Shown here: piece after piece, positions 178 through 40,289 of the stretch | How the letters are laid out: every line of letters starts with the position of its first letter | How positions within the stretch are numbered: the first letter of the stretch is position 1 | Assembly (NCBI GenBank): GCA_016214545.1 | Contig: JACROH010000001.1 | Coordinates: forward strand, 116,239-180,238 | DNA: 64,000 nucleotides | Direction of reading: 5' to 3' | Source of the DNA: Candidatus Lloydbacteria bacterium | GTDB lineage: Bacteria > Patescibacteriota > Minisyncoccia > Phycocordibacterales > 21-14-all-47-15 | The notes under the pieces: generated by a model | The model's input: the letters and a program-made list of their open reading frames with translations, nothing else | Databases searched by the model: none | Told to the model about the DNA's origin: nothing | Made by a program: the position numbers and the translations under genes

Positions 178-2259
178 ATGTTTTCATTAAAAACGACTTC
201 ACGATTGGTGATAGGAATGCTCGTTGTTCAGATGCTCTATTCGTTTTTTCCTATCGGAGTTTTGGCTAGTACCGGAACTTTTAATTCTACCGCCGACGCC
301 TATCTCTCAAGCGGTTCGCCAAATGCCAACAACAGCACGGGCATCATTATGGACCTAATCAACACGAGAGATGGAGTCGTTCGCTTTGACACGAGCTCTA
401 TACCTTCGGGCTCGACGATTACTTCGGCAACGCTGACGTTGGTAGCGACCGCGGTCGGTAGCGCCACGTCGATTAAAAATTATGGGGCGCATCGCATATT
501 GGTTGATTGGACTGAAAGTACGGTTACCTGGAATACTCCCGGCAGTACGGCCGGGACCCATTTTGCGACTTCGCCGACGGATACGGTTGCCGTTTCTACC
601 GCCGGCTCATATAGCTGGAATGTGACGAGCGATGTGGCGAGTTTCATCGCCGGAAGCGCTACCAATTATGGCTGGCGTATTATTTGGTCTTCAAACACAA
701 GCGGCACCAATAAACAAGTTGATTTTGGAACAAAAGAAAATACTACGGCGTCTAATCGACCGGTTTTGAGCGTTACCTATACCACTCCCGACACTATCGC
801 GCCATCGGCGGTTTCAGACCTTGCCCTTTCGAGTCCTTCAAATTCTGCGATAACTGTTTCATGGACGGCTCCGGGAGATGATGCTTCCACCGGCACTGCG
901 GCGAGCTATGATTTACGCTATTCAACTTCTGCGATTACTTCCGGCAATTTCAGTTCAGCTACTGCGGTCACCGGTGAGCCAACGCCGTTAGTCGCTGGCA
1001 CTTCTCAATCAATGACGGTCACAGGTCTTTCTCCAAGCACCACCTACTATTTCGCCATCAAAACTTCCGATGAAGTTCCGAATACCTCGGCAATCTCAAA
1101 TGTTCCGAGCTTGGCAACGACGGCAACCCCCGACACTACCGCGCCATCGGCGGTTTCAGATCTGGCCGCGTCGGGCGCAACCGCGTCGTCAGTCCTTCTT
1201 TCGTGGACGGCTCCCGGTGATGACGCCTCCACCGGCACTGCGACAAGTTATGAAATCCGCTACTCCACAAGCAATATCACCGATGGAAATTATTCCGGAG
1301 CGACCCAGGTGAGTGGAGAGCCTGCGCCGCAAGCGGCGGGGGCCAGTCAATCAATGACGGTCACAGGTCTTTCTCCAAGCACTACCTACTATTTCGCTAT
1401 CAAAACTTCAGATGAGGTGCCGAATGCCTCGGCGATTTCGAATGTGCCGAGTTTGGCAACGACGGCAAGCGGCGGTGGGGGCGGCGGAGGAACAGAGACA
1501 TCAAGTTCGGGTGGTGCCGGGGCCGCCGTGTTGCCGACCAGGGTGGTCATTTCCGGGCAAGCATACCCGGGTGCAAAAGTGGATTTGCTCCGAAAAAGCA
1601 TTCAAGACGAGATATACCGAAATACGCCGGAAGCTATCTCAACCGTGTCCGCCGACGGCACTTTTTTCATACAGCTCACGGCGCTTCTCCAGGGGCAGTA
1701 TTTCTTTGCGCTTCGCATCGCAGATAAAGACGACAGAAAGACCGGCAACATCGCTTTTAACGTTGATTTGACGAGTGCAAATGAGCTTGTCGCGCGAGAT
1801 CTTTTTGTTCCGCCAACTATTGATTTTGAAACAGCTATCGTTCCGCTTGGAAAAGAAATAAAGGCACAAGGGTATGCCGCTCCCAAAAGCAGTGTTGTCG
1901 TCGAAATTGATGGTATACTGAAAGAGGAAGTGAAATCAGAAGAGGACGGCTTATGGTCTTTTGCGACAAGCACGGCGTCTTTCCGCATAGGGAATCATTA
2001 CGCGCGGGTAAAACAAACGGGCGCAAGCGGCAAAGAAAGCGAGTTCTCATCATCGCGCGCGTTTCGTGTCTCGCTTCTTGCTGTGCCAAAATCGGATTTA
2101 AATAATGACGACAAGATTACTATTGCCGATTGGAGCATCTTTCTTTTCAGGTGGGGCTCCAAAGATACGGCGTTAAGAAGTAAAATTGACATGAACAATG
2201 ACGGGAAAATTGACATTTCAGACTTGAGCATTTTTTTAAAAACGTTAAAGACGCTATAA
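178..2259 (+). CDS. Secreted multidomain surface protein: signal peptide, DNRLRE-like N-terminal domain, two tandem fibronectin-III-like repeats, Gly-rich linker, Ig-like region, C-terminal type-I dockerin
   Basis: 693-aa ORF with a hydrophobic N-terminus; two near-identical repeats (TTPDTIAPSAVSDLA...TTYYFAIKTSDEVPN). The C-terminus DLNNDDKITIADWSIF...DMNNDGKIDISDLSIF forms the duplicated Ca-binding dockerin motif. Confidence 0.85.
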   Translation: MFSLKTTSRLVIGMLVVQMLYSFFPIGVLASTGTFNSTADAYLSSGSPNANNSTGIIMDLINTRDGVVRFDTSSIPSGSTITSATLTLVATAVGSATSIKNYGAHRILVDWTESTVTWNTPGSTAGTHFATSPTDTVAVSTAGSYSWNVTSDVASFIAGSATNYGWRIIWSSNTSGTNKQVDFGTKENTTASNRPVLSVTYTTPDTIAPSAVSDLALSSPSNSAITVSWTAPGDDASTGTAASYDLRYSTSAITSGNFSSATAVTGEPTPLVAGTSQSMTVTGLSPSTTYYFAIKTSDEVPNTSAISNVPSLATTATPDTTAPSAVSDLAASGATASSVLLSWTAPGDDASTGTATSYEIRYSTSNITDGNYSGATQVSGEPAPQAAGASQSMTVTGLSPSTTYYFAIKTSDEVPNASAISNVPSLATTASGGGGGGGTETSSSGGAGAAVLPTRVVISGQAYPGAKVDLLRKSIQDEIYRNTPEAISTVSADGTFFIQLTALLQGQYFFALRIADKDDRKTGNIAFNVDLTSANELVARDLFVPPTIDFETAIVPLGKEIKAQGYAAPKSSVVVEIDGILKEEVKSEEDGLWSFATSTASFRIGNHYARVKQTGASGKESEFSSSRAFRVSLLAVPKSDLNNDDKITIADWSIFLFRWGSKDTALRSKIDMNNDGKIDISDLSIFLKTLKTL
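781..1470 (+). repeat. Internal tandem duplication (~345 bp x2, ~85% nt identity) encoding two FN3-like modules inside the dockerin protein gene
   Basis: Direct comparison of 781-1124 with 1125-1470: both carry acaggtctttctccaagcac(c/t)acctactatttcgc(c/t)atcaaaacttc and flanking similarity. Confidence 0.8.
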
Positions 2260-2263
2260 CCAT

Positions 2264-4024
2264 ATGGCAAAAAATTTTTTTACAGTATGTTTTTCACTCC
2301 TTGTCTTTTTCTGGTCGGCTTTTTCGGCAAATGCCGCCACTATTTCTCTTTTGCCGCAAGCGCGCGCTTTTGGCATCGGGCAGGAATTCAGCGTTGATAT
2401 AAAAATTGATACCGAAGAAGCATACATTAACGCAAGCCAGGCGACGGTGCGGTTTCCTGTTAGCGTGCTTGAGCTGGTAAGCGTTGATAAAACAAACTCT
2501 GCTTTTGGTTTTTGGGTTGAGGAGCCGAAAATCTCAAACGATGAAGGCACGCTCATGTTTACCGGCGGTACAACGAGCGGTGTTTCGGGCGGCTCTCTCC
2601 AGATTTTGAAATTGAAATTTAAAGCAAAAGGCACGGGACTCGCCGAGATTGCCCTGCAAGACGCGGCGATCACGGCTTCCGACGGCAAGGGAACGAACGT
2701 TCTCTCGGCACTCAAGGGGACGAGTGTTTCCGTGGGAACGCAAGTTGTTGTCCCGATTGCCCCTTCGGTTCCATCTTCTGTCAAACCATCTGCTCCCGCT
2801 GTCCCTGTCGCTCCGACTGTTGAACCGCAAAAAATAATCCGAGAGGCCGTTGTGGCGCAAAAATTGCCGGAGAAACCGCTGCTTCGGGTCCCGTTATATT
2901 CTGACGCAACCCGTTGGTACAATCACCAAGGAGAAGCGGCTGTCTTTTGGGATGTTCCATCGGACGCTATTGAGGCGGCCGTGGTCGTCGACCATAGCCC
3001 GTTAACGAAGCCGCAAAAGCCTGAACCAGAATTATTAACCGGCAAAAATCTCGGAGTTTTGAAAGAGGGAGAGTGGTATGTTCACGCGCGATTTAGGAAC
3101 AACATCGGATGGGGTGACACCGCGCACTTTAAGATTTCAATTGACGCAACGCCCCCACTGCCGTTTGAAATCAAAGATTCACTCACGAGCGATAATCCAA
3201 CCCCGGAAATAAAATACGAGGCGCACGACGCGCTCTCGGGGGTTTCTCACAATATTCTCTTTCTTGATGGTAAAGAATTCGTGAAAGGGACTACCACTTC
3301 TACCGTATTGCCACCGCTGTTGCCCGGTCCCCATATGGTACTGGTGCGGGTATTTGACTTGGCGGGCAACAGTGCCGAGAGCGATTTAAAATTTGAAATC
3401 TTGCCGCTTGCGACGCCAATCGTTGATTTTGTATCAAGTTCAATAATCCAGGGGGAGTCTCTGTATGCGTCGGGAAAATCAATTCCGAATGCATTTGTCG
3501 ATGTGCGTATAGTAGATAAGCGGCAGCGGGAAGTGATATCGGAGAGCGCAAAAAGTGATAATAGAGGCGATTGGAAAATTTCAATAAATGACCCCCTGCC
3601 AACCGGTACGTACACCATTTCTATCACGGCGCGCGATGAACGGGGAGCGAGGAGTTTCTCTGCGGATGTCGGGGCGCTCAAGGTGCATCCGAGAACCGTA
3701 TTATCATTGGGCGGAGTCGTCGACCTCGGCTGGTTTGAAATTCTCCTTATTTTGATACTCTTTATTACCTCGGCAACCGGACTCTTCGCATGGCAGTATG
3801 TTTCAAAAAATAAGACGCGCGAGGCATATAAAATGATTGTCGGCAGAGACGTCAATAAATTTGTAGACATGCTCGTTTCTTTTTTGAAAGAGTTTGAGAG
3901 CGCCGGAGATTTGAACGAAGACAGCCGTCGCGTAAAACAAAAAGCGCTCATAGAGCAGGCCAGAGAAACGGTTGCAAAAATGAAAAAATACATCGGCGAA
4001 GAAGTGAATAGACTGGGGAAGTAA
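2264..4024 (+). CDS. Membrane-anchored protein with N-terminal signal peptide and cohesin-like domain, C-terminal TM helix and cytoplasmic tail
   Basis: 586-aa ORF; N-terminal AATISLLPQARAFGIGQEFSVDIKIDT...LQILKLKFKAKGTGLAEIAL resembles type-I cohesin. Hydrophobic segment GWFEILLILILFITSATGLFAW near the C-terminus; start lies 5 bp after the dockerin gene stop. Confidence 0.8.
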   Translation: MAKNFFTVCFSLLVFFWSAFSANAATISLLPQARAFGIGQEFSVDIKIDTEEAYINASQATVRFPVSVLELVSVDKTNSAFGFWVEEPKISNDEGTLMFTGGTTSGVSGGSLQILKLKFKAKGTGLAEIALQDAAITASDGKGTNVLSALKGTSVSVGTQVVVPIAPSVPSSVKPSAPAVPVAPTVEPQKIIREAVVAQKLPEKPLLRVPLYSDATRWYNHQGEAAVFWDVPSDAIEAAVVVDHSPLTKPQKPEPELLTGKNLGVLKEGEWYVHARFRNNIGWGDTAHFKISIDATPPLPFEIKDSLTSDNPTPEIKYEAHDALSGVSHNILFLDGKEFVKGTTTSTVLPPLLPGPHMVLVRVFDLAGNSAESDLKFEILPLATPIVDFVSSSIIQGESLYASGKSIPNAFVDVRIVDKRQREVISESAKSDNRGDWKISINDPLPTGTYTISITARDERGARSFSADVGALKVHPRTVLSLGGVVDLGWFEILLILILFITSATGLFAWQYVSKNKTREAYKMIVGRDVNKFVDMLVSFLKEFESAGDLNEDSRRVKQKALIEQARETVAKMKKYIGEEVNRLGK

Positions 4025-4050
4025 AAATAGTATTAGTAGTACAAAAAGAA

Positions 4051-4089
4051 AAATCGCTAAAGCGTGTCTTTAGCGATTTTTCTTTTTTT
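4051..4089 (+). terminator. Rho-independent terminator after the cohesin gene
   Basis: aaatcgctaaag-cgtgtc-tttagcgattt hairpin followed by a T-run. Confidence 0.75.
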
Positions 4090-4140
4090 CCTCTGTCTTG
4101 CGACAGAGTCGGGCCGAAGCCGTTTGTATTTATATGATAC
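4090..4140 (+). repeat. Copy A of a ~50-bp motif: hairpin with TTGCGA loop, then GGCCGAAGCC..TTGTA.TTA.AT.ATAC
   Basis: cctctgtcttgcgacagagtcgggccgaagccgtttgtatttatatgatac; partner copy at 4610-4658. Confidence 0.7.
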
Positions 4141-4204
4141 TTGGCATTGTATCAAAGTCAAACAAAATTTTTGTTTTGCAGCTTTTTGATTTATACTGTT
4201 TGGT

Positions 4205-4588
4205 ATGAAAAAAGATTTTGATAGTTGGAATGGAGCGAAGAAAAAAACAAACGTGGAATATCCTCGCCTCTATACCGTTCGCGAGATATGGTGGTGCCGC
4301 CTCGGTGTAAATATCGGTTCTGAACAGGATGGAAATGGCCGCTCATTTCTCCGCCCAATTGTTATAATGCGTGCGTTTGGTCCAGAAACGTGTGTTGTTG
4401 TTCCTCTTACCACGTCAGAACAGAAACATCCGCTCCGTATTCCCGTTGGAAAGATACAAGAACGGAATGCATCAGCCTTGCTTTCTCAGGTTCGTGTTAT
4501 TGATACTCGTCGCTTGGTAGAAAAGGTGGGGTTTCTTGATAAGGAAACTTTTGAGCGCTTAAGAAAAGCCGTCAGAAATTTGTTCTGA
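4205..4588 (+). CDS. MazF/PemK-family toxin (mRNA interferase), apparently solitary
   Basis: 127 aa; RLGVNIGSEQDGNGRSFLRPIVIM...CVVVPLTTSEQ aligns with the MazF/PemK core (GSEQ.G.RP.vv.s / c.p.Tt). No antitoxin-sized ORF upstream or downstream. Confidence 0.8.
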   Translation: MKKDFDSWNGAKKKTNVEYPRLYTVREIWWCRLGVNIGSEQDGNGRSFLRPIVIMRAFGPETCVVVPLTTSEQKHPLRIPVGKIQERNASALLSQVRVIDTRRLVEKVGFLDKETFERLRKAVRNLF

Positions 4589-4600
4589 CGGCTTTTCTTT
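4564..4600 (+). terminator. Rho-independent terminator after the mazF-like gene
   Basis: aaaagccgtcagaa-atttgt-tctgacggctttt followed by a T-rich run. Confidence 0.75.
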
Positions 4601-4609
4601 TGCTGTTCT

Positions 4610-4658
4610 CCCTCTTGCGAGGGTAAGGCCGAAGCCACTTGTACTTACATATTATACC
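4610..4658 (+). repeat. Copy B of the ~50-bp motif (see 4090-4140)
   Basis: ccctcttgcgagggtaaggccgaagccacttgtacttacatattatacc shares the TTGCGA-loop hairpin, GCCGAAGCC and TTGTA.TTA.AT blocks with copy A. Confidence 0.7.
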
Positions 4659-4667
4659 TTATAATAT
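4639..4667 (+). promoter_or_regulatory. Candidate sigma70-type promoter (TTGTAC-17-TAATAT) for the downstream coiled-coil protein gene
   Basis: Hexamers at 4639-4644 and 4662-4667 with 17-nt spacing, about 70 nt upstream of ATG 4740. Confidence 0.5.
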
Positions 4668-4739
4668 GTAGAGTCAAGCGCATACGGTGCGTATCAGTGC
4701 GTATTGCAAAAAGGCCGAGAAAAGGGCTACAATATCATA

Positions 4740-5993
4740 ATGAAAAAACTATCCACAATCGCTCTCTCGTTGCTTTTGGTAGTCTCTTTTGTTTTGCCCT
4801 CTTCCGCTTTAGCCGCGGCAAGCCCTGGCGTGAAGCCCGGAAGTTTCTTTTATTTTTTTGACACCACTTTTGAAAAAGTGGGGCTCTTTTTTACATTCAA
4901 CCCCGAACAAAAAGCGAGAAAAGCGCTTGAGTATGCCGATGAACGATTGGCGGAAATAGAATCCGTCGCGGAAGAAAAAAATCCCGATGCGGTGAAGACG
5001 GCTCTCGCCGATTATGAAAACAACATCGCGCTCGCCACGGAAAAATCAAAAGAAATAAAAGACAAAGCGCAAGCGGAAAGCCTGCTTACCTCCATTGAAG
5101 ACAACGCTTCAAAAAATCAGGAGGCGTTATCGGCCGTTTTGATTAAAGTGCCCGAAGAAGCAAAGGCGGCGATAGAGCAGGCGATTGAAGCAAGCAAAAA
5201 AGGCCAGGAAGAAGCGGCAAAGCAGGTAGCGGAACTCAAAAAAGAAGTCTCGGAGCTCAAACAAGAGCTTGAGAACGTGAAAGAAAAGCTCAAAGAAAAA
5301 GAAACGGCGCCAAAAGCGGGCGATACTGCTGATGCGAATGACGCGAAAGATGAAGAGAAAGAGGCGGTAGAAGAACTCAAAAGCGAAATAAAAAATCTGA
5401 AACAAGAAATAGATGAACCGGAGGAAATAGAAAGTAAATTATTTAAAAAGCAGTCATATCTTGTTACTCCAAGTGGTGCAAAAGTTGATGAAAAAGGCAA
5501 TATCCTTAATCAAGACGAGCTAGATCTTATAATAGCGGATGTGGCAGAAAAGGATCGAGTGAAAAAAGAAAGTCTTTGGAGAAAAAAAATAGCTGAGAAT
5601 AAAATCTTAAAAGAAAAGCAAGATGAACAAAACATTATCGCAGACGAATTAAGAAGACTGGAAATCGTTGATAGTCTTAACAGAGAATATGGAATGAAAA
5701 TAAATAATTTAAAGAAACAACTTATTGAAATAAATATTTTGGATAATGGAATTAAAGCTACCGAGATACTTAGGTTTTACGGAAATAAAACATCACAATA
5801 CCCGGATTTTATCGATACTGATTTTAAAAAACAAGCAATAATAACAATCTATAATAAATTAGATAATATTAATCCTGTTAGTCGAAGTTCTGGTCACGTT
5901 ATAGAATTTATTAGAGAACAAACCTCTTCAATAAATACTCAAATATATTTACTTCAAAATGAACTAGAAAGGAAGCTTTTAGAAATTAAATAA
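4740..5993 (+). CDS. Secreted coiled-coil protein of unknown function with an AT-rich C-terminal module
   Basis: Start at the MKKLSTIALSLLLVVSFVLPSSALA signal peptide (ATG 4740, within the longer ORF 4704). Long E/K/A-rich heptad-like region; the last ~190 codons drop to ~30% GC. Confidence 0.8.
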   Translation: MKKLSTIALSLLLVVSFVLPSSALAAASPGVKPGSFFYFFDTTFEKVGLFFTFNPEQKARKALEYADERLAEIESVAEEKNPDAVKTALADYENNIALATEKSKEIKDKAQAESLLTSIEDNASKNQEALSAVLIKVPEEAKAAIEQAIEASKKGQEEAAKQVAELKKEVSELKQELENVKEKLKEKETAPKAGDTADANDAKDEEKEAVEELKSEIKNLKQEIDEPEEIESKLFKKQSYLVTPSGAKVDEKGNILNQDELDLIIADVAEKDRVKKESLWRKKIAENKILKEKQDEQNIIADELRRLEIVDSLNREYGMKINNLKKQLIEINILDNGIKATEILRFYGNKTSQYPDFIDTDFKKQAIITIYNKLDNINPVSRSSGHVIEFIREQTSSINTQIYLLQNELERKLLEIK

Positions 5994-6014
5994 GGCCGAT
6001 TATTACCTTCTAAC

Positions 6015-6050
6015 AAAACCAACCTTTTAAAAGGTTGGTTTTGTTTTGTT
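6015..6050 (+). terminator. Rho-independent terminator between the coiled-coil gene and pheS
   Basis: aaaaccaacctttt-aa-aaggttggtttt followed by gttttgtt. Confidence 0.7.
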
Positions 6051-6075
6051 GAAAATCTTCGCTATACTGAAGAAT

Positions 6076-6804
6076 ATGGAAAAAAGTGGGCATTTGCATC
6101 CGCTTACGCATGTTATCCGCCATATGGTGGGTATTTTTCGCGAGCTTGGGTTTCAGGTGGCAGAAGGGCCGGAAATTGAAACCGAACACTATAACTTTGA
6201 CGCGCTGAACATTCCCAAAGACCATCCGGCGCGGGATATGTGGGATACCTTTTGGCTTAAACCGCAAAATAGAGGTTTGCTTTTGCGCACGCACACGTCG
6301 CCTGTGCAGATTCGCTACATGGAAAAACATAAGCCGCCGATACGGATTATCGTGCCCGGTAAAGTGTTTCGGTATGAAGCGACCGACAGCACGCACGAAG
6401 CGCAGTTTTATCAGCTGGAAGGGCTTCTCATAGATAAAGATATTTCGCTCGCGCATTTGAAGGGCGTGCTTGGAAAGTTTTTTGAAGGGCTTTTTGGTAG
6501 GCAGACGGCAGTGCGTTTGCGCCCGAGCTACTTTCCGTTCGTTGAGCCGGGGGTGGAGGTGGACGTATCGTGTTTCAAGTGCGGAGGCAGGGGGTGCGGG
6601 CTTTGCAAAGAGAGCGGCTGGATTGAGATCATGGGGGCGGGCATGGTGCACCCGAACGTGCTCCGCGGCGTGGGCATAGACGAGCGGGAGTGGCAGGGCT
6701 TTGCCTTCGGCATCGGGATTGACCGCGTGGCGATGCTGAAATACGGTATAGACGATATCCGTCTCTTGTACCAAGGCGATTTGCGAGTGGTGAATCAATT
6801 CTAA
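6076..6804 (+). CDS. pheS: Phenylalanine--tRNA ligase alpha subunit (short form lacking the N-terminal coiled coil)
   Basis: Class-II aaRS motifs ([30 protein letters not shown]). The ORF opens at TTG 6046, but that overlaps the upstream terminator T-run, so ATG 6076 (MEKSGHLHP) is preferred. Confidence 0.85.
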
Positions 6805-33053: not shown

Positions 33054-33493
33054 GGCTTTGTGTCGGGTAGTTGCCCCGCTCCGCGAAAAGCGGGACGGGG
33101 AGGAAAGTCCGAACACGGGCGCGTTGAAAGACGCGCGAGCAGGGTAGCGGGTAACGCCCGTCGTCCGCAAGGATAGAGGTGCGAGCAGAGACGCTTTGAT
33201 TCGAAAGGATCAAAGCTCCGACGGCAACGTCGGAGAGTCCCGATGGCAACATCGGGGGTGAAACGGCAAAATCCTTACCTCCGTGCAAGGCCGTGCCCCG
33301 CTTTTATGGCGGGGAGTGCCGCTTGAGGCGTTTGGCAACAAACGTCCCAGATAAATAACTATCGCCGAGCACCACTTTTGACGAAAGGTTTAGGTGTTAA
33401 AAAGTGATTCTGTGAGAATCACTTTTAATAACAGCTTTATTTTGTTTCAAAAGTGGTGCTCGGTACAGAATTCGGCTTATAGACACAAAGCCT
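33054..33493 (+). ncRNA. rnpB: RNase P RNA (bacterial type A) with an AT-rich insertion helix
   Basis: -10 tataat at 33041-46. P1 gctttgtgtc (5') pairs gacacaaagc (3'). Conserved GGGAGGAAAGTCCGAACAC, GCAGGGTAGCGGGTAACGCCCGT, GGTGAAACGGCAAAATCC and 3' ACAGAATTCGGCTTAT blocks. 14-bp stem 33366-33379/33451-33464 encloses ~70 nt of AT-rich sequence. Strong terminator follows. Confidence 0.85.
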
Positions 33494-33504
33494 TGAAGAT
33501 TCAT

Positions 33505-33545
33505 GAAAACCCGCGGCGCGTTAGCGCGCCGCGGGTTTTCGCGAG
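33505..33545 (+). terminator. Rho-independent terminator of rnpB
   Basis: gaaaacccgcggcgcgttagcgcgccgcgggttttc. Confidence 0.85.
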
Positions 33546-33737
33546 AGGAAAATTCTTTTCGGGGAAGATTTTAATCAGCTATTCTGTTTGTCCACATAAG
33601 AGTCTATTTAAAATCTAAGACTGGGCATTGTGTAAAATACATAATTTCTTTATACTATTGGTATCCTTGCTTTGCGCGATTGGGGGCATCTCCCGCTTGC
33701 GTTTATTATTACTATATTATTTTTTATCGTCACTTTT

Positions 33738-40218: not shown

Positions 40219-40289
40219 GCGGGTATAGTTTAGTGGCAGAATGGTTGCTTCCCAAGCAACAGATCGGAGTTCGATTCTCCGTACCCGCA
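40219..40289 (+). tRNA. tRNA-Gly (anticodon CCC)
   Basis: Cloverleaf folded by hand: acceptor GCGGGTA/TACCCGC, anticodon stem GTTGC/GCAAC with loop TTCCCAA, T-arm CGGAG-TTCGATT-CTCCG, discriminator A; no encoded CCA. Confidence 0.9.

Follow-up and report, generated by a model that had tools for sequence, protein, structure and literature searches.

In this study, we report a predicted small RNA (sRNA) gene that converges on the mazF/pemK toxin gene (4205-4588, plus strand) of a Candidatus Lloydbacteria genome, both located in the 64-kb stretch of DNA that was analysed here (hereafter, the window). Comparison of homologous loci shows that the MazF/PemK toxin genes of one clade in Patescibacteria, which have neither MazE nor Shine-Dalgarno (SD) sequences, are nearly always accompanied by this putative RNA gene in convergent orientation. 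Judging from sequence, the RNA is most likely the antitoxin of this MazE-less clade, and the locus is composed of one complete predicted module (mazF plus the RNA gene behind it, named copy 2) and one orphan antitoxin RNA gene lying ahead of the toxin gene (copy 1). The whole reading that we favour, namely that the sRNA gene provides an antitoxin which would inactivate MazF by a type III-like action on the protein itself, has in our opinion slightly better than even chances of being right.

The toxin gene encodes a protein of 127 amino acids (aa) whose sole Pfam match was PF02452 (PemK_toxin), with an E-value of 2.9e-16 and a score of 60 bits (cut-off 23.1) over residues 26-127. All PDB profile matches of the protein were to MazF, EndoA or PemK, the closest solved relative being EndoA/MazF of B. 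subtilis (4MDX, E 1.7e-10), and the motif G-x-E-Q-x-G...R-P, which aligns with GSEQGG-VRP of EndoA, is kept. Residue R50 was invariant across 72 diverse toxins of the family and T69 was invariant in the close toxin clade. The product is a member of the MazF/PemK family with the catalytic Arg and Thr motifs retained, and its activity is predicted. It is 100% identical to a protein from a Candidatus Lloydbacteria metagenome-assembled genome (MAG), and one protein search returned 772 homologs, nearly all of them 125-127 aa in length and from genomes of the Parcubacteria group. An AlphaFold2 model of the toxin was built from close homologs only; it serves as confirmation of the family only and is silent on RNA binding. 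When it was used in Foldseek, the fold of CptIN was matched no more than faintly. A conserved N-terminal extension of 25 residues (4205-4279), which is predicted to be disordered, precedes the PemK domain and lies outside the Pfam match. This clade-specific extension, with the pattern M-x-K-D-F-x-x-W-x-x-x-K, is highly conserved, was modelled with a predicted local distance difference test (pLDDT) value of ~40, and is a candidate RNA-binding arm.

With respect to the expression of the toxin gene, its probable -10 box, TATACT (4192-4197, plus strand), was read from the sequence at 7 nucleotides (nt) before the ATG, and therefore the mazF mRNA is probably leaderless or nearly so. Among 56 toxin genes of the family, none had an SD-like motif and 25 carried TANNNT 5-9 nt ahead of the start, against 7.3 expected. 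A preliminary description of the locus had presented mazF as a solitary toxin gene. This holds with respect to protein partners: no plausible protein antitoxin adjoins it among the open reading frames (ORFs) of the window, and no conserved upstream gene of the MazE/PemI type was found across ~100 toxin genes of the family, the upstream ORFs being heterogeneous and mutually unrelated. The defence-system models of PADLOC gave zero matches to the module. The preliminary description had allowed for an adjacent antitoxin that it might have missed, and such a candidate was in effect found, as an RNA and not as a protein.

The RNA gene was recognised in the two imperfect repeats that flank mazF. Their homology, already proposed, is confirmed by a shared composite motif and by a covariance model that matches both. 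The sequence GGCCGAAGCC has exactly two occurrences in the window, at 4112 and 4627 (0.18 expected), and the composite CTTGCGA..GGCCGAAGCC also has two, against 0.00 expected. When the whole window was searched with the covariance model and the filters off, only the two copies were returned, with 77.3 bits for copy 1 and 67.2 bits for copy 2, the next-best match being an ordinary terminator with 19 bits. The parts of both copies follow one another in the same order on the minus strand: a -35 box, a spacer of 16-17 nt, a -10 box, 6 nt and ACAA(AC/GU), and then GGC-UUCG-GCC (helix P1), 3 nt, a stem with a GCAA loop (P2), an A-rich linker and a long hairpin (P3) with a U-run. The GCAA-capped stems of copy 1 (7 bp) and copy 2 (5 bp) differ entirely in sequence, and the UUCG and GNRA (GCAA) tetraloops are present in both copies on the minus strand alone. 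As had been described, each copy follows a terminator, the inverted repeats with their T-runs being located at 4038-4092 and 4561-4599.

Copy 2 (4555-4642, minus strand) is the putative cognate partner of mazF. It is predicted to start at A 4642 (5'-ACAAGUG), its 3' end is approximate, and a promoter scan located its promoter at 4649-4677 on the same strand, with TTGACT at 4677-4672 and TAATAT at 4654-4649 separated by a 17-nt spacer. Helix P1 occupies positions 4627-4636 (GGC-UUCG-GCC) and P2 positions 4610-4623 (CCCUC-GCAA-GAGGG), followed by the A-rich linker at 4600-4609. The covariance-model match extended from 4642 to 4542 (E 1.2e-15), and the minimum free energy fold reached -41.8 kcal/mol, with a z-score of -7.3. 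Helix P3 doubles as a bidirectional terminator of mazF and copy 2 (4561-4599, both strands), a perfect inverted repeat of 17 bp and then a T-run, whose stem contains the last ~9 codons of mazF together with its stop codon (4586-4588). The two transcripts are thus predicted to overlap in antisense by ~40 nt.

Copy 1 (4036-4127, minus strand) is predicted to start at A 4127 (5'-ACAAACG) and is an orphan, the toxin gene being absent behind it. Its promoter (4134-4161, minus strand), with TTGACT at 4161-4156, a 16-nt spacer and TATCAT at 4139-4134, had 10 of 12 matches in the promoter scan. P1 is located at 4112-4121 and P2 at 4091-4108 (CUCUGUC-GCAA-GACAGAG), while its P3/terminator, at about 4041-4087 within the inverted repeat and T-run of 4038-4092, is common to the gene of a 586-aa Big_13/cohesin protein that ends at 4024. 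The covariance model matched copy 1 from 4127 to 4025 (E 2e-18), and its fold had -40.2 kcal/mol and a z-score of -9.2. A search of the whole window against Rfam 15 at gathering score gave no family for either copy, and a search of 3950-4760 at E <= 10 gave spurious terminator-like hairpins only. No tandem repeats were found in 3800-4900, the RNA being a single unit, convergent with mazF and downstream of it. Full-text searches of the literature found neither a description of this RNA nor an RNA antitoxin for MazF.

The structure was studied across the members of the family. RNAalifold applied to the raw MAFFT alignment recovered P1 only, given that the P2 arms of unequal length had been left-justified; the structure was defined by a vote of single-sequence folds, followed by a covariance model and model-based realignment. 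In the model-aligned set, 87.7% of the cells formed a standard pair, compared with 74.6% in shuffles and 42-58% with slid partners, and 23 of 25 pairs had changed on both sides, against a shuffle mean of 15.5. None of 500 shuffles reached the observed covariation values. Covariation was found in all three helices. At the middle pair of P1, 44 sequences have G-C and 33 have C-G, and GGC-UUCG-GCC thus alternates with GCC-UUCG-GGC. P2 showed 29 distinct arm sequences of 4-10 bp in which GNRA and UUCG loops interchange (GCAA in 27, GAAA in 7, GUAA in 3 and UUCG in 9 of the 61 parseable folds). In P3, all 16 pairs covary while still coding for the end of the toxin, and the complement of the mazF stop codon occupies the same three columns in 78 of 83 pairs of toxin and RNA genes. 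This fixed position indicates that the toxin gene builds its own terminator from its last ~9 codons and stop codon plus the bases that come next. The non-Watson-Crick pairs of P3 were G.U in 116 cases vs A.C in 35, which points to selection being no weaker on the RNA strand than on the mRNA strand.

The promoter consensus of the 81 unique members was cTTGACa, 17 nt, (T)TGcTAtAaT, 6 nt and T|ACAA. The -35, extended -10 and -10 boxes stand at a fixed distance from ACAA in these members, while the spacer is not conserved, and for this reason the start of the transcript is placed on the invariant A. The 5' end is the most conserved part of the RNA, with A in 81, C in 77, A in 81 and A in 77 of the 81 members at its first four positions, and with ACAAGUG (40/81) and ACAAAUG (31/81) as the commonest heptamers. 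An [AG]UG triplet was observed at positions 5-7 in 76 of the 81 close-clade members (GTG at 4636-4638, minus strand, in the window), and the conservation of U6-G7 is unexplained by secondary structure. Promoter, start, covarying structure and intrinsic terminator together show the motif to be an independent bacterial sRNA gene, the expression of which is predicted. The plus-strand reading given in the preliminary description has therefore to be replaced, the UUCG/GNRA loops, the fixed-distance promoter and the excess of G.U over A.C all indicating that the functional strand is the minus one. The plus-strand promoter TTGTAC-17-TAATAT proposed for copy 2 is the reverse complement of the RNA 5' end (T|ACAA) plus an AT-rich, non-conserved spacer. 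The alternative suggestion of a repeated regulatory RNA element went in the right direction.

The linkage of the RNA to the toxin was examined in other genomes by three routes. Four homolog loci were fetched by exact protein look-up and, in all four, whose genomic contexts differ, the motif is located directly 3' of the toxin gene. A DNA-pattern scan (ACAANNGGCTTCGGCCN{6,12}GCAAG) of one genome per species, blind to proteins, gave at least 119 loci, and the 128 pattern matches examined comprised these scan loci as listed, the window and the four look-up loci. Among the matches listed, ~99 of the 128 were bona fide, that is, they were preceded by a promoter and had a stem of 4 bp or longer, and nearly all of them came from Patescibacteria (Paceibacterota/Parcubacteria groups, Saccharibacteria, Uhrbacteria, Magasanikbacteria and others), while ~20 were chance matches in other phyla, without promoter and without stem. 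A convergent PemK-like ORF was present beside 84 of the 99 bona fide copies and 0 of the 20 chance matches, with its stop codon 39-62 nt from the RNA 5' end; PF02452 was matched by 71 of the 72 unique partner ORFs, which were 32-85% identical to the window protein.

In addition, 80 metagenomic loci were retrieved by MazF similarity alone (45-78% identity), blind to the RNA, and searched with the covariance model built from the genome-scan set. The RNA was convergent at the 3' end of 83 of the 88 PemK genes that these loci contain; one of the remaining genes lies at a contig end and four had no model match, and there were four orphan RNAs. Three of the four toxin genes without a model match still have a diverged RNA with the same architecture and other 5' sequences, e.g., ACAUAUUU-GGC-AUUC-GCC, which suggests that the family is wider than the covariance model detects. 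These diverged convergent RNAs, beside distant PemK paralogs (L259, ~4222-4340; L311, ~1144-1260; L324, ~5157-5270; all on the minus strand), have a strong promoter, a small P1 with AUUC or GAAA loops, a GNRA-capped P2 and differing 5' single-stranded sequences. The partnership of toxin and RNA is kept in unrelated genomic contexts. Tandem head-to-tail arrays of 2-4 mazF-RNA modules, in which each toxin has its own convergent RNA, were observed as well (L324 2494-5156; L284, L294, L171, L150 and L182), and the orphan RNA plus full module of the window resembles a short version of such an array. Two copies that look bona fide lie on contigs that are not labelled as Patescibacteria, one of an Alphaproteobacteria MAG (L174 4532-4622, on a 1.29-Mb contig) and one of a Chitinophagaceae MAG (L136 4638-4714). 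One of them has an intact PemK partner and the other a degraded one, and they could be due to horizontal transfer or to a binning or labelling issue. Specific patterns gave four loci on viral contigs, of which one was scored by the model and, being inside a phage terminase gene, was a chance match; phage-borne copies are thus not supported.

The history of the locus can be followed in a syntenic genome, GCA_016181845.1 (locus L122), in which the order is a Big_13 gene, mazF, RNA, a 43-aa duplicate of the pheS N-terminus, a second PemK gene, RNA and pheS-pheT. Its mazF product is 85% identical to the window toxin, while the second PemK (PemK2), of 130 aa, is 38% identical to it. Copy 1 of the window with its flanks (4025-4215) is 82% identical in DNA to L122, from the 3' end of the second PemK through the RNA and its promoter to the next start codon, and this likeness indicates that copy 1 is the orphan RNA of a PemK2-type module whose toxin is gone. 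In L122, the PemK2-type module is still intact. The idea of a toxin cassette dropped between two regulatory repeats is not supported, given that the downstream copy belongs to mazF, as in 83 of 88 homologs, and that the upstream copy is the leftover of a PemK2 module. Regarding the pheS region of L122, the 43-aa duplicate (4559-4690) is directly upstream of the second PemK-RNA module and the real pheS starts after the module, an arrangement suggestive of a cassette that was inserted at the 5' end of pheS and duplicated its target (syntenic with ~4600-6100 of the window). The window has a DUF5667 gene (4740-5993) where L122 has this duplicate.

Decay of the modules was mostly one-sided. Among the 97 RNA genes that could be assessed, 75 adjoin an intact-looking toxin gene, 13 a fragment or interrupted toxin gene and 9 none. 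Therefore, 22 of the 97 are beside a degraded or missing toxin, while toxins without RNA are rare, and the loss of the toxin with retention of the RNA is the pattern of decay expected of an antidote. The orphan RNA copies keep an intact promoter and fold, and copy 1 even outscores copy 2 in the window.

According to the favoured reading, the antitoxin RNA would be made constitutively and in excess from its near-consensus sigma-70 promoter and would keep the RNase harmless. It would neutralise the MazF protein by direct action, in a type III-like way, its single-stranded 5'-terminal ACAA lodging in the groove for the substrate and mimicking there a substrate or product that cannot be cleaved. 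Since transcription would begin with ACAA itself, no nucleotide would stand ahead of it to provide the attacking 2'-OH, and U^A cleavage of an RNA beginning at ACA would thus be impossible. The conserved N-terminal extension of the toxin would grip the two rigid hairpins, P1 and P2, and the antisense overlap of ~40 nt at the 3' end of the mazF mRNA may contribute a further, type I-like level of control over that mRNA. It must be noted that EndoA/NdoA of B. subtilis, the closest solved homolog, binds single-stranded UACAU (PMC6562991). Direct action on the protein is favoured because the best-conserved part of the RNA lies outside the mRNA overlap, because orphans stay intact though unable to pair with any mazF mRNA, because the toxin start region shows no complementarity to the RNA beyond that of shuffled sequences, because diverged toxin paralogs have RNAs with different 5' ends and because the closest characterised MazFs bind single-stranded UACAU. 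With respect to complementarity, the pairing of the RNA 5' half with the mazF start region was no better than that of shuffled sequences (-13.8 vs -13.8 kcal/mol). We infer the direct inhibition of the toxin protein from the conservation of the 5' module, the orphan copies and the ACA-like 5' end.

Several points weigh against this reading. The register of the stop codon in P3 and the convergent layout with a shared terminator are those of 3'-overlapping type I systems, and an antisense mechanism may be the main one. In many members the linker contains ACA (AGAACA, CAAACA) and could be a target of cleavage instead of an inhibitor, and the likeness of ACAA to the UACAU site is an analogy. The toxicity of MazF and its rescue by the RNA are predicted, as are the transcript, its ends and its abundance when each motif copy, read on the minus strand, is taken as a complete small-RNA gene of ~80-90 nt. 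The AlphaFold2 model of the toxin had a pLDDT of 64, and its Foldseek matches to MazF structures were found at a template modelling (TM) score of ~0.3. Regarding the samples, ACAA, GGCUUCGGCC and GCAAG are invariant in the genome-scan set because the pattern searched for required them, and the sole unbiased set, that of the protein-retrieved loci, is made up of toxins that share 45% identity or more with the query. Type III-like binding and type I-like pairing may also both operate together. We put forward as a tentative generalisation, rather doubtful at present, that a single convergent sRNA, transcribed independently, would replace MazE across the MazF clade of Patescibacteria, would inhibit the enzyme directly through its 5' ACAA, an uncleavable mimic clamped by the two tetraloop hairpins, and would act in antisense on the 3' end of the toxin mRNA too, as a type I/III hybrid. 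Such a pairing of toxin and antitoxin would be of a new kind, and the RNA would be the first antitoxin of this nature for a genuine MazF.

The strongest rival, which we regard as unlikely and still worth serious consideration, is a purely cis-antisense, type I-like antitoxin: the terminator region would pair with the 3' end of the mazF mRNA, leading to RNase III-type decay or to a block in the completion of translation, and the 5' module of the RNA would serve only for stability or RNase recruitment. The convergent layout with an obligatory overlap of ~40 nt speaks in its favour, as do the stop codon fixed in P3 in 78 of 83 pairs despite divergence to ~32% identity and the covariation of all 16 P3 pairs in spite of their being coding. 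There are also precedents in B. subtilis, where the pairing of txpA/RatA, bsrG/SR4 and yonT/SR6 takes place between the 3' ends, with SR4 binding first at a terminator loop (PMC6562991). However, antisense pairing leaves unexplained the deep conservation of 5'-ACAARUG and of P1 with its UUCG, which do not overlap the mRNA, as well as the orphans that keep promoter and fold although their P3 can pair with no mazF mRNA. Moreover, both RNAs lock the complementary segment in very stable hairpins, the translation start region has no complementarity, and known type I toxins are small membrane peptides and not RNases of 127 aa. A different possibility, to which we give a low probability, is that the RNA is a partner of MazF and not its antidote, be it a preferred substrate or sensor, a cofactor by which the RNase is modified or directed, or a co-travelling trans-acting regulator of other genes. 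Tight linkage and conservation demonstrate partnership and not the direction of the effect, and both single-stranded segments contain ACA-like motifs. Nevertheless, a catalytically intact-looking MazF that has no other antitoxin candidate would be hard to maintain uninhibited, the loss of toxins with retention of their RNAs fits an antidote, and the RNA has no variable guide-like segment besides its structural stems.

The three other explanations are less probable still. An element acting at the DNA level, such as an attC-like or other recombination site with mazF as a mobile gene cassette, would be in keeping with the tandem arrays at varied sites, with the PemK2 module of L122 adjoining a duplicated 5' fragment of pheS and with the cassette proposed in the preliminary description. 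We consider it very unlikely, given that the -35, extended -10 and -10 boxes are conserved at a fixed distance, that the stable tetraloops and the asymmetry of G.U over A.C are strand-specific, and that no integrase or recombinase was seen in the neighbourhoods inspected and no copies on viral contigs. Even less credit can be given to a toxin cassette inserted between two copies of a generic plus-strand repeat of regulatory or promoter-associated nature, a view that the comparative data already contradict, although TTGTAC-17-TAATAT is readable on the plus strand of copy 2. The covariance model finds two copies only in the 64 kb and none at other promoters, which excludes the motif as a generic promoter-associated element; the supposed -35 box corresponds, in reverse complement, to the conserved 5' end of the RNA, and the supposed -10 box lies in the non-conserved spacer; the downstream DUF5667 gene has its own promoter; and the motif accompanies mazF into unrelated contexts. 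The least credible of all is a small protein antitoxin encoded by the minus-strand unit and starting at the [AG]UG of nt 5-7. The frequency of RUG in the close clade (76/81) and the apparent use of leaderless mRNAs by this organism would agree with it, but the ORFs range from 2 to 82 codons and no conserved peptide extends beyond the part constrained by the RNA, the P1 flip turns Ala-Ser-Ala into Pro-Ser-Gly, and ACG or AGG occupies the start position in 38 of the 107 members of the wider set. An RNA-encoded peptide was therefore rejected as a candidate on account of variable ORF lengths, the P1 flip and the ACG/AGG start positions.

Other features of the window were also annotated. The promoter of the DUF5667 gene (region 4704-4740), TTGCAA-18-TACAAT, ends 7 nt before the ATG at 4741, and this gene seems leaderless. 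Upstream of the locus, 178-4024 encodes two large predicted surface proteins of 693 and 586 aa (Big_13 plus a weak cohesin match), whose homologs are syntenic in L122. An RNase P RNA of class A was found at 33055-33495 (plus strand, 118.5 bits), and a weak match of the covariance model (33483-33591) is the terminator that follows it. Five tRNA genes are located at 40219, 44134, 44594, 51922 and 55941.

With regard to the significance of these data, to our knowledge Patescibacteria, also known as CPR (Candidate Phyla Radiation), have very small genomes, in which few defence systems are known and hardly any regulatory RNAs have been characterised. The RNA reported here matches no Rfam family, is widespread in this group and is most likely previously undescribed; if our reading is right, it would be among the first widespread, covariation-supported sRNA families specific to Patescibacteria. 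In that case, hundreds of CPR MazF genes annotated as 'solitary' or 'orphan' would gain a partner, the RNA would represent a natural inhibitor of MazF, and a large clade of MazF toxins (the 772 homologs of one search) using an sRNA would blur the borders between types I, II and III. Since several copies or arrays are often found per locus, the module may be a major stress or defence module in CPR.

Finally, the module was compared with the known toxin-antitoxin systems. MazF/PemK is the textbook type II toxin, and this type is defined by its protein antitoxin, the adjacent and co-transcribed gene of which is usually upstream and overlapping. The toxin of the window is homologous to those of the type II systems MazEF/PemIK (NdoA/EndoA-NdoAI, PDB 4MDX and 4ME7) and keeps their catalytic motifs. 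Unlike them, it has no upstream co-transcribed MazE/PemI, its mRNA is without SD and probably leaderless, it carries a 25-aa N-terminal extension, and a conserved convergent sRNA would stand in for the protein antitoxin. Type III antitoxins are tandem direct repeats placed upstream of the toxin gene and co-directional with it, and they are processed by the toxin; toxins of the ToxN type share a MazF/Kid-like fold. With these systems (ToxIN, CptIN, TenpIN) the module shares an endoribonuclease toxin beside a structured non-coding RNA gene, without protein antitoxin, and a strong terminator between the RNA unit and the expression of the toxin. In contrast to them, the RNA of the window is a single unit without repeats, convergent, downstream and with its own promoter, and its toxin belongs to PF02452 (MazF/PemK) and not to the ToxN/AbiQ, CptN or TenpN families.

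SymE/SymR of E. coli is a case in which a cis-antisense RNA controls a sizeable toxin associated with RNA cleavage, and not a membrane peptide. SymR differs from the RNA of the window in that it overlaps the 5' end and the SD of symE, SymE has an AbrB (MazE-like) fold and not that of MazF, and the two RNAs have no similarity in sequence or structure. SymR is mentioned in the same work (PMC6562991) as the convergent type I systems of B. subtilis that overlap at the 3' end, namely txpA/RatA, bsrG/SR4, bsrE/SR5 and yonT/SR6. The gene layout of the latter is identical to that reported here, with converging genes, a 3' overlap of the transcripts at the terminator and an sRNA on its own promoter. 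However, their toxins are small hydrophobic peptides and their overlaps are of ~75-125 nt, while the module has an RNase of 127 aa, an overlap of ~40 nt at the terminator and a deeply conserved, non-overlapping 5' module in the RNA. Thus, of the features of type I, the cis-antisense overlap is present (terminator 4561-4599, including the stop codon, its transcription being predicted), but the small hydrophobic peptide of <60 aa is not, the toxin of the window being a homolog of soluble-type RNases of 127 aa. No likeness was found to the Rfam families, including the toxin-associated motifs. The module therefore fails a defining feature of each of types I, II and III, and would operate as a type I or type III system with a type II toxin at its core.

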